This document shows, in pieces, positions 15,897-17,564 of a stretch of DNA of 30,642 nucleotides. Location: positions 1-30,642 of the IMG/VR virus record IMGVR_UViG_3300030090_000464; one strand, 5' to 3'. A model generated the notes under the pieces. The model did not search any database, was not told where the DNA came from, and worked only from the letters and a program-made list of their open reading frames with translations. The first letter of the stretch is position 1; each line of letters opens with the position of its first letter. A program made the position numbers and the translations under genes. The stretch comes from a virus. Its lineage: Duplodnaviria > Caudoviricetes.

Positions 15897-15900
15897 TTTT

Positions 15901-16092
15901 ATGGCTACCAAGAAGACCAAGAAAAAATCTACCGTTAACAAAGCTGGTAATTATACTAAACCTACTATGAGAAAGAATTTGTTTAATAAAATTAAAGCAG
16001 GTTCCAAAGGAGGTAAGCCCGGACAATGGAGCGCACGTAAGGCTCAGATGTTGGCTAAACAGTATAAAGCAAAAGGTGGTGGATACAAATAA
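15901..16092 (+). CDS. Basic small protein, DUF5872-like N-terminal part
   Basis: NYTKPTMR...IKAGSKGGKPGQWSARKAQMLAKQYKAKGGGY motif. Confidence 0.8.
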   Translation: MATKKTKKKSTVNKAGNYTKPTMRKNLFNKIKAGSKGGKPGQWSARKAQMLAKQYKAKGGGYK

Positions 16093-16334
16093 TGGCACTT
16101 AAAAAATCTCAAAAATCTTTAAAGAAGTGGACTAAACAGAAATGGAGAACTCCTAGTGGTAAGAAGTCTTCAGAAACTGGAGAAGTCTATGCTCCTTCAG
16201 CTACTATAAAAAAATTAAAATCAACTAAAGCTGGAAGAGCAAAGCTTGCAGCAGCTAATAAAAAGAAAAGAGAAGCTACTAAAAAAGGTAAACAACATGC
16301 AAAGCATGGACTACATAAAGGAAAAAAACGATGA
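16092..16334 (+). CDS. Basic small protein, DUF5872-like C-terminal part
   Basis: SQKSLKKWTKQKWRT...TGEVYAP...ANKKKREATKKGKQH; TAATG-coupled to the previous ORF. Confidence 0.75.
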   Translation: MALKKSQKSLKKWTKQKWRTPSGKKSSETGEVYAPSATIKKLKSTKAGRAKLAAANKKKREATKKGKQHAKHGLHKGKKR

Positions 16335-16645
16335 GAGAAGAATACAAAAAAGGAAGTAAAGCTAAGAAAAAAGATTCACGCTTAAAAAATGCAGGAGTCT
16401 CTGGCTATAACAAACCTAAAAGAACTCCGAGTCATCCTACTAAATCTCATGTAGTAGTAGCAAAAGTTGGAGATAAAATAAAAACTATACGGTTTGGACA
16501 ACAAGGTGTTAGAGGAGCAGGTAAGAATCCTAAAACTGCTAAAGATAAAGCACGTAAAAGATCTTACTATGCTAGACATAATGCTCAAGATGCCAAGCCA
16601 TCTAAGCTTAGTGCTAGGTATTGGTCACATAAAGTAAAATGGTAG
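16331..16645 (+). CDS. Basic small protein, DUF5754/DUF6321-like
   Basis: KPKRTP...KSHVVVAK...IRFGQQG...RSYYARH...SARYWSHKVKW motif set; ATGA overlap. Confidence 0.75.
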   Translation: MREEYKKGSKAKKKDSRLKNAGVSGYNKPKRTPSHPTKSHVVVAKVGDKIKTIRFGQQGVRGAGKNPKTAKDKARKRSYYARHNAQDAKPSKLSARYWSHKVKW

Positions 16646-16673
16646 TAATTATTATGTAATATTAAATAATACA

Positions 16674-16720
16674 CGTTCATCCTTTACAGGACGGAAGTAG
16701 GCATAATGCTGAAGGAACGC
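16674..16720 (+). ncRNA. Glutamine-I riboswitch (glnA RNA motif)
   Basis: CGUUC-A-UCCU-uuac-AGGA-CGGAAGUA-GGCA-uaa-UGCU-GAAG-GAACG-C. P1 = 16674-78/16715-19, P2 = 16680-83/16688-91, P3 = 16700-03/16707-10, with the GGAAGUA/GAA E-loop junction of the glnA motif. Lies 5' of a YRG-peptide gene. Confidence 0.88.
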
Positions 16721-16756
16721 ATTGATGATGTTTATCAATCTAACTGGAGGTATATT

Positions 16757-16915
16757 ATGACTGAGTACTATAGAGGCTTTAAAAATGAAAACGAATCTGA
16801 AACATTTTCTGGTATGAAATCTGGAATTTATAGAGGAGTAAAGTGGTATGCAACAACAACAACAAATCAAAACAAAAAAAGAAAAAGAAGAGCATCTAAA
16901 ACAACAACAAAATAA
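16757..16915 (+). CDS. DUF4278-like YRG-motif peptide (52 aa; start re-called from 16706)
   Basis: SD GGAGG at 16746-16750, ATG at 16757; MTEYYRGFK...SGIYRGVKW has two YRG motifs, the hallmark of peptides downstream of glutamine riboswitches. Confidence 0.75.
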   Translation: MTEYYRGFKNENESETFSGMKSGIYRGVKWYATTTTNQNKKRKRRASKTTTK

Positions 16916-16931
16916 AAGGCATAATCAGTAA
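16848..16931 (+). CDS. Putative Gln-rich leader/coupling peptide (27 aa; not in ORF track)
   Basis: MQQQQQIKTKKEKEEHLKQQQNKRHNQ; SD GAGGAG at 16833-16838; TAA 16929-16931 overlaps the ATG at 16931. Confidence 0.55.
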   Translation: MQQQQQIKTKKEKEEHLKQQQNKRHNQ

Positions 16932-17155
16932 TGGGTGTAGAAGATTTTTTTGGTGGGCCTGAACTACCTGAAACAAGTGTTATAAAAACAAATGCAGATG
17001 TTGTAGCTCATGTAGCTGAAGCTATAGCAGGTTCAAATGATTTAGATTTATCTAAAGCTTTATTTGAAATATTAAATAAACACTCTGAAGTTGTCTTGGA
17101 AACAAGTCAAAAGATAATGTGTAAATATAAAATGCATTTACAATCAGTCAAATGA
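16931..17155 (+). CDS. Hypothetical protein (74 aa)
   Basis: ORF track; phage-like codon usage; ATGA overlap with next gene. Confidence 0.7.
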   Translation: MGVEDFFGGPELPETSVIKTNADVVAHVAEAIAGSNDLDLSKALFEILNKHSEVVLETSQKIMCKYKMHLQSVK

Positions 17156-17355
17156 TTGAGCCAACATCACCATCAATACCTGTTGGTACATGGGCTAAAC
17201 ATAATACTACAGAAGTAGTTAGACATGATAAGAAGAATGGAGAAGAGCTTAGACTACAGACAGTCTTCAGGACTGTTTACTATGAGTTTGCTGATGGTAG
17301 AGTTCAACTAAAAAATTATACATCTCAAAACTCTACGATAAACTTAACTGCTTAA
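17152..17355 (+). CDS. Hypothetical protein (67 aa), last gene of the + arm
   Basis: ORF track; stop overlaps the convergent stop in TTAA at 17352-17355. Confidence 0.65.
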   Translation: MIEPTSPSIPVGTWAKHNTTEVVRHDKKNGEELRLQTVFRTVYYEFADGRVQLKNYTSQNSTINLTA

Positions 17356-17564
17356 CGTAGAGCCTGTAATTCTTTTTCTAAATAACCGTGAAGGTTTTCT
17401 AGTTTTAGAAGACCTTCACGTATTACTTTTCTTATAAGAATCTTATCATCATCTTCTGCAAATATTTTAGATACTGCTTCTTCTGGTAGCTGGCTAAGTT
17501 CAGTAACCAGCGTACCTTTAGAATCTATCATAATTTTGAATGATAATATATTTCCTTCGTTCAT
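17352..17564 (-). CDS. Hypothetical protein (70 aa)
   Basis: ATGA overlap with nrdB stop; last gene of the - arm. Confidence 0.7.
   Translation of the reverse strand: MNEGNILSFKIMIDSKGTLVTELSQLPEEAVSKIFAEDDDKILIRKVIREGLLKLENLHGYLEKELQALR

Follow-up and report, generated by a model that had tools for sequence, protein, structure and literature searches.

Attenuator leader peptides of the his, trp and thr type are short ORFs rich in one amino acid that lie upstream of another gene. Short ORFs have also been described behind glutamine-riboswitch RNAs (PMC2864571). The glutamine aptamer (RF01739), found at Synechocystis gifB/IF17, is tied to DUF4278/IF17 genes; the DUF4278 part forms the N-terminal half of IF17, and Prochlorococcus has DUF4278 proteins without the C-terminal GS-binding part (PMC6212724). 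Three Arg residues are essential in the IF7-like half (PMC6316151). RF01739 has been reported in SAR86 (PMC12379486), and phage glutamine riboswitches have been published for Melnitz, Mosig and AG-345-P14 (PMC9004378, the accessible text of which mentions neither DUF4278, with 0 occurrences, nor the micro-ORF considered here).

The window analysed here is a stretch of 30,642 nt (IMG/VR record IMGVR_UViG_3300030090_000464), a marine phage contig that encodes structural proteins as well as DNA polymerase A, a primase/helicase and ribonucleotide reductase. A sequence-only reading of it had drawn attention to an unannotated Gln-rich micro-ORF next to a peptide with YRG motifs. Phage glutamine riboswitches are already known; the micro-gene, judged by its relatives, is a real and so far unnamed small phage gene. 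No description of it was found in the literature searched, supplements apart; relevant material on the OFF helix or on further phage examples may be contained in Supplementary Figure S3 of PMC6212724 and the additional files of PMC2864571.

A glutamine riboswitch and a YRG peptide form a cassette in the late gene cluster

The nearest cultured DNA polymerases are those of the pelagiphages HTVC115P, 104P and 103P (49–50% identity), a group described in bioRxiv 10.1101/2019.12.14.876532 (accessible part). The micro-ORF locus lies at the end of the plus-strand late module, past the M15 endolysin and small basic genes. Three very basic small genes (phrog_17747, phrog_14910, phrog_7595) occupy 15901–16645 of the window, and their order is shuffled among relatives. 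The phrog_7595 gene (16331–16645, plus strand, 104 aa) encodes a basic phage protein ending in HKVKW, which the micro-ORF follows directly in relatives without the cassette. On the other side, a 74-aa ORF (16931–17155, plus strand) overlaps the micro-ORF stop by TAATG, the gene at this position differing among relatives, and a 67-aa ORF (17152–17355, plus strand) is the last plus-strand gene before the convergent replication module. A terminator-like 15-bp hairpin with a T tail (17387–17420, plus strand), a consensus match only with two such sites found and 0.9 expected in shuffles, is likely the end of the late transcript. It lies within a minus-strand 70-aa ORF (phrog_27180), where the late and replication modules converge. 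The promoter scan gave 7 sites with 9.6 expected, none of them on the plus strand upstream of the aptamer.

The element at 16672–16723 (plus strand) scores 59.2 bits over the full glutamine-I riboswitch model (glnA leader, RF01739, positions 1–53), the gathering score being 35. Among 21 distinct related leaders P1 and P2 are 100% paired with two compensatory pairs and P3 is 98.8% paired with one; by score and pairing, the element is a glutamine-I riboswitch. The interval between aptamer and Shine–Dalgarno (SD) site contains an A/U-rich hairpin (16721–16739, plus strand), which the majority of related leaders retain; L256 and L270 carry a deletion of it. The SD itself, GGAGG (16746–16750, plus strand), is invariant in 22/22 aligned leaders and precedes an ORF (16757–16915, plus strand) for a 52-aa, DUF4278-like peptide with two YRG motifs, whose last 22 residues are read off-frame over the micro-ORF. 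This peptide reaches 16.5 bits on PF14105 and its relatives 20.7 and 24.3, all under the cut-off of 25.3; its repeated YRG motifs lie directly behind a glutamine aptamer, as in the context of DUF4278. Since the aptamer is directly upstream of a DUF4278-like YRG ORF, as at gifB/IF17, a translational ON switch is probable in the window.

In the unfolded aptamer, the P3 loop and 3′ strand (CATAATG, 16702–16708, plus strand) are predicted to pair with 16753–16759, which comprises the spacer and the YRG start codon. Such a helix has at best 6–8 bp in 17 of the 20 listed leaders of the lineage and 5, 5 and 4 bp in L066, L206 and L056; the best helix in 12 other YRG leaders has 3–5 bp. On the alignment, 95% of cells pair, compared with 13–80% for slid controls and with 1/500 shuffles as high, the helix having been derived from the very sequences used to score it. 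One pair is altered on both sides, from A-U to G-C, which may be a single event. In folds with P1 locked, the YRG start codon opens in the window's clade (from 0.06–0.20 to 0.42–0.87 unpaired). By contrast, it remains paired in the types L209, L216 and L219, and accessibility of the SD hardly changes; a general OFF-helix model is weakened by both results. The pairing is best treated as a candidate OFF helix and a lead. Unconstrained folding of the leader gave a stability no greater than that of shuffles (z 0.22).

The window's cassette is bordered on both sides by GTAAA(A/G)TGGTA. L203, whose flanking genes share 91% and 94% identity with those of the window, has the empty site: it carries the micro-ORF but no cassette. 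Among relatives the cassette is present or absent at several points of the gene cluster. DNA contigs from 4/4 runs span the region from aptamer through micro-ORF with 2–10 differing letters and no gaps (16851–16895 were passed over as repeat), so the arrangement is not an assembly artefact. One contig of run X15 joins 16641 to 16928 and matches the allele of L201, which has neither cassette nor micro-ORF. The cassette is covered by contigs in 3/4 RNA runs, and 1/4 has contigs over most of the micro-ORF, DNA carry-over being possible. These RNA-library contigs, from three studies, match the cassette with 0–2 differences, and one of them covers 16768–16918, which falls short of proving transcription.

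Of 121 bacterial loci, those most similar in the aptamer belong to marine Gammaproteobacteria, SAR86 among them, the aptamer being too short to name the host. Long ORFs rather than YRG peptides follow the aptamer in L342, L355, L359, L391, L320, L330 and L376, loci of marine Gammaproteobacteria and SAR86. By eye these ORFs resemble glutamine synthetase, glutamate synthase subunits and outer-membrane proteins. Within viral glutamine-riboswitch loci, 14 of 120 carry, 108–255 nt past the aptamer, a PqqA-type precursor peptide that in most cases is preceded by another short ORF (L022, L027:1338-1406, L030, L044, L045, L062, L070, L092, L093, L094, L096, L099, L110, L116); the L027 peptide reaches 43.9 bits on PF08042, and that of L116 is fused to the preceding short ORF. 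Many viral glutamine riboswitches directly precede short basic non-YRG peptides of several recurring families (L001, L005, L008, L009, L013, L019, L021, L041 and others). Downstream of the aptamer in L002, L011, L026, L033 and L109, a YRG peptide with a Gln-rich linker is followed by a coupled Gln/Lys-rich peptide, and L014 carries a fused form of the two; the Gln/Lys-rich peptides of these loci gave no match to the micro-ORF profile at 18 bits.

The micro-ORF is a member of a conserved gene family

The micro-ORF (16848–16931, plus strand, 27 aa) has its SD, GAGGAG, at 16833–16838, 9 nt before the ATG. A (CAA)5 run (16851–16865) follows the start, with three more CAA at 16902–16910 and a CAG at 16926–16928, nine Gln codons in total, and the last A of the TAA at 16929–16931 is the first letter of the next ATG (TAATG, 16929–16933). 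These statements of the sequence-only reading are exact, and the positions also agree with its view that codons of the second YRG motif supply the SD, whose letters are the AGA GGA G of TAT AGA GGA GTA (16829–16840). Gln accounts for 9/26 codons compared with 4.2% in nine long window genes (binomial P 7e-7, post hoc), and (CAA)5 occurs only once on either strand of the whole window. Those nine genes contain, in 20,193 nt, three chance off-frame ORFs of at least 25 aa with SD and ATG, so that the layout in one genome is modest evidence only. Rather, the micro-ORF is judged real because it is conserved in relatives.

The first homologs came from searches independent of the micro-ORF, namely with a pattern for the aptamer (120 of about 550 loci), with the gene downstream (12 loci) and with a YRGVKW-ATG pattern (19 loci). 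In these the ATG is fixed, the length is 27–29 codons and the end is conserved; the tail in the YRG frame is variable. A second round with patterns for the last 8–9 micro-ORF codons gave 16 viral and 61 metagenome loci, many of them redundant; 59 of the 61 metagenome matches have an open frame up to an ATG at 27, 28, 29 or 44 codons, and the other two run off the end of their contigs. When all phage and metagenome loci were then scanned with a profile, the set comprised 52 distinct DNA versions from related marine phages, encoding 44 peptides of 26–44 aa that are predicted to be helices, and a library of 1.84 billion proteins contributed 18 further representatives, 17 of which have 27–51 aa. 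The claim of a real ORF is borne out by this set: its members demonstrate an ORF with a conserved Gln frame that also occurs without the riboswitch, between variable upstream and downstream genes. One 81-aa protein, P0008, matches the micro-peptide in its last 21 residues and has an unrelated front; it is possibly an assembly chimera.

In the Gln frame, pN/pS is 0.45 for 23 versions of 29 aa, 0.39 for nine of 28 aa and 0.36 for the six of those embedded in YRG; the overlapping YRG frame gives 0.93, 1.68 and 2.40 for the same three sets. These ratios were computed outside the search-pattern bases, from non-independent and ungapped pairs and without P-value, and the sets omit 6/38 versions (three of the L209 type, 29 aa long through an internal insertion, two of 27 aa and one of 26 aa) as well as all 44-aa forms. 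They indicate that selection acts on the Gln frame and not on that of the YRG tail. The residues W, I, K, D and H persist while their codons vary synonymously. The CAA/CAG swaps that had been proposed as a check do occur, as in L088 (CAG CAG CAA CAA CAA), with 285 CAA and 113 CAG over the 52 versions, and conservation of the Thr frame, the competing outcome, is not seen. With its W and L positions lost and a Q5 run gained, the window copy resembles a member of the family that has drifted.

The 44-aa form makes up 13/52 versions (e.g. L253:796-927, L267:796-927, L301:581-712) and is never near a riboswitch in the available flanks. AlphaFold predicts for it a single helix (residues 3–42, mean pLDDT 88.6), though a lone helix says little on function; its best scores in the ESM Atlas, 0.87–0.88, are to unnamed clusters and serve as leads only. 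The window micro-ORF has no match in Pfam, PHROGs or NCBIfam. Eleven relatives have none above cut-off in Pfam, with a best PHROG E of 0.067, and six have none in NCBIfam. When 15900–17400 was compared by blastn with 50,697 cultured-phage records, only the basic genes (query ≤748) matched, neither cassette nor micro-ORF being found, and the four cultured-phage regions obtained in this way gave no match to the micro-ORF profile. The micro-gene is absent from 2/5 near-complete relatives searched and is therefore dispensable.

Glutamine codons as a possible second sensor

Could the micro-ORF itself sense glutamine? When charged tRNA-Gln is scarce, its Gln codons would hold up the ribosomes, and the signal would reach the next gene through the TAATG overlap, as a second tier behind the riboswitch. 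In line with this, all 52 versions contain 6–10 Gln (well above the 4.2% background, though partly imposed by the design of the search patterns), a T(A/G)ATG stop/start overlap with the next gene is present in 49/52, and the aptamer pattern lies within 800 nt upstream in 21/45 versions with enough flank. The remaining 24 of these 45 have no aptamer pattern upstream, however, and RF01739 is absent throughout 4/4 near-complete (96–100%) cassette-less genomes carrying the micro-gene, while the positive control matched. Only 2/52 versions have the Q5 run and 1/52 has Q4; 47/52 have only QQ near the start, with KQxQQ at this place in most relatives. Conservation extends to non-Gln residues. Moreover, the downstream gene varies, the flanking genes are joined with no micro-ORF between them in the close relatives L201 and L208, and on the plus strand no terminator-like site precedes 17387, the micro-ORF region being unstructured. 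The hallmarks of an attenuator leader peptide are thus missing: no codon run is conserved, no terminator or antiterminator is adjacent, and the downstream genes are variable and unnamed.

The proposal that the CAA run senses Gln limitation fails on these counts; the idea of Gln sensing by the micro-ORF is weak, we consider it unlikely, and the run appears from its distribution to be a lineage quirk. Co-occurrence of aptamer and micro-ORF may be explained by shared descent. Of the 598 loci with the KVKW gene, the 80 best include none with the aptamer pattern and one with the micro-ORF, which leaves a link to nitrogen possible. As many relatives keep the gene without riboswitch and without Q5, an ordinary small late protein is likely, not a Gln sensor.

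A more elaborate scheme would have glutamine read twice on one late mRNA. The riboswitch would gate YRG through a P3 loop that sequesters its start, the micro-gene, with about one Gln codon in four, would be a relay dependent on charged tRNA-Gln that tunes the nitrogen-rich basic proteins encoded next, and the cassette would be a plug-in with its own start site for the following gene. Such a Gln-codon relay, if true, would amount to a novel way for a phage to sense nitrogen; this reading, too, is unlikely.

Spacer or protein

The micro-ORF might instead be mainly a translated spacer that relays ribosomes and supplies the start of the next gene, its peptide sequence mattering little. Near its end the Arg/Gly codon is with few exceptions AGG or GGA, so that an SD-like core is retained, and part of the C-terminal conservation may thus concern the SD of the next gene rather than the protein. 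The frequent stop/start overlap and a window copy without the family residues would also suit a spacer. Yet pN/pS upstream of the SD-like region is 0.36–0.45, the W and L-I positions are kept, and L215 and L225 retain the peptide with no overlapping next gene. We therefore regard a mere spacer as improbable.

No likeness to a GS inactivating factor

The position of the micro-ORF behind a glutamine riboswitch and a DUF4278-like peptide, the counterpart of the N-terminal half of IF17, allows the pair to be read as a split IF17, in which the micro-peptide would be the IF7-like half that binds GS and hence a GS inhibitor; the Prochlorococcus DUF4278 proteins mentioned above fit such a split (PMC6212724, accessible text). 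An IF-type profile was built from 15 C-terminal domains, motif-picked from cyanobacterial loci. On 41 micro-peptides it scored at most 2.4 bits, with a shuffled 95th percentile of 5.5 and self scores of at least 65.8. The search in the reverse direction reached at most 3.6 bits, and hhalign a probability of 0.2%. The micro-peptides contain 0–4 Arg and a single Arg/Gly/Lys position, so the three-Arg pattern of IF7 is not conserved, and the micro-gene often has no YRG partner. With scores within those of shuffles, the profile tests rule out an IF7/IF17 likeness of the micro-peptide, and a split IF17 is very unlikely.

Translation probably starts at the ATG within the YRG overlap

The YRG and micro-ORF frames overlap by 68 nt, which had suggested a +1 shift of the YRG ORF at the TGG-TAT junction, the real product being a YRG–micro fusion; L014, an unrelated locus, indeed encodes a fused YRG and helical peptide. 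The junction codon, however, varies (TAT, AAT, GAT) and the ATG is invariant, at an SD–ATG distance typical of initiation. The gene before the micro-ORF is YRG in 13 of the 52 versions, the MADPKKG gene in 20, the GGGYK gene in 10, the KVKW gene in 4 and another in 5, so that 39/52 have no YRG ORF directly upstream. A programmed +1 frameshift would need a conserved shift site and an upstream frame that is always present, and neither was found. In L216, L219, L224 and L229, the same GGAG-to-ATG site opens an unrelated 100-aa gene, after which the micro-ORF follows with its own AGGAGG or AGGAG. As the same site starts another gene in relatives, initiation is favoured over frameshifting, and the fusion is highly improbable.

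The odd tail of the YRG peptide is 10–26 residues long among 13 versions. That it is an off-frame reading over the micro-ORF, as first supposed, agrees with its variability and with pN/pS of 0.93–2.4 in the YRG frame; the varying junction codon, the fixed ATG and the empty site in L203 argue that it is read-through to the first off-frame stop. In L219 the 100-aa gene and the micro-ORF both begin with ATGGC, and the sequence of L275 looks as though the 100-aa gene had been lost between the two starts. In L270 an in-frame shortening leaves 46 aa of the 100-aa MADPKKG gene, which lies between cassette and micro-ORF about 200 nt upstream of the latter, a possible intermediate of gene loss.

The start region of the micro-ORF is less folded than shuffles (z +1.96). 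Having its own start site in unstructured RNA, 67 nt upstream of the YRG stop, the micro-ORF would be only loosely tied to the riboswitch; upstream translation should not be needed for it, and any control by glutamine would be indirect.

Finally, the 27-aa form lacks one codon of the 28-aa form in the CAA region, so in-frame slippage may have made the run. The notion of a slippage microsatellite within a chance ORF is nevertheless extremely unlikely and, as a full explanation, refuted by selection on the Gln frame and by a family conserved without the run, a 3-nt unit moreover being unable to switch frames.

A probable small late protein downstream of a riboswitch cassette

Taken together, 16848–16931 is probably a conserved small phage gene that is likely initiated afresh at the SD within the YRG codons; its product, a predicted short helix, likely binds a phage or host protein late in infection instead of sensing glutamine. 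The glutamine-riboswitch and YRG cassette would have been acquired or lost at several points in a cluster of small basic late genes. Its end would be YRGVKW plus the ATG of whichever gene comes next, and where this is the micro-ORF, the YRG frame would continue to the first off-frame stop and acquire its odd tail. Glutamine would free the YRG start codon from the P3-loop helix and so turn on YRG translation, and the last codons of the micro-ORF, AAA AGG or AAA GGA, together with the TAATG overlap, would hand ribosomes to the next gene.

The locus adds to a marine phage group an unnamed family of very small proteins that family libraries have missed. It also illustrates how a gene can come under the leader of a riboswitch cassette with no DNA added, the codons of its last motif being the ribosome-binding site of the next gene. 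The candidate OFF helix bears on how the glutamine-I riboswitch controls translation, which the accessible text of PMC6212724 calls unclear.

Comparison with known systems

The window resembles Synechocystis gifB/IF17 (PMC6212724, accessible part) in that an aptamer of full length, scoring above cut-off, immediately precedes a DUF4278-like YRG ORF. In contrast to gifB/IF17, the element belongs to a phage and is flanked by genes of a late cluster, the YRG peptide lacks the IF7-like C-terminal half, and the micro-ORF has no counterpart. The OFF pairings differ as well: the window's candidate involves the P3 loop and the start codon, whereas PMC6212724 proposes C68 and downstream bases with the RBS. 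Compared with the IF7/IF17 C-terminal domain, the micro-peptide is likewise small, basic, Gln-containing and near a Gln riboswitch, but shows no profile similarity and no conserved three-Arg pattern.

Melnitz, Mosig and AG-345-P14 have the same riboswitch class in marine phages. Melnitz, however, is a T4-like myophage with its element reported at ssrA (PMC9004378, accessible part), and the window is from a phage with PolA, primase-helicase and RNR. Compared with DUF4278/IF17-like YRG peptides (PF14105), the window likewise has repeated YRG motifs behind a glutamine aptamer, but it and its relatives score below cut-off (16.5–24.3 bits) and the last motif doubles as the SD of the next gene. As in the his, trp and thr attenuators, the micro-ORF is short, rich in one amino acid and upstream of a gene. 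It differs from them in that its run is not conserved, no terminator or antiterminator accompanies it, variable phage genes lie downstream, and it is other residues that are under selection.
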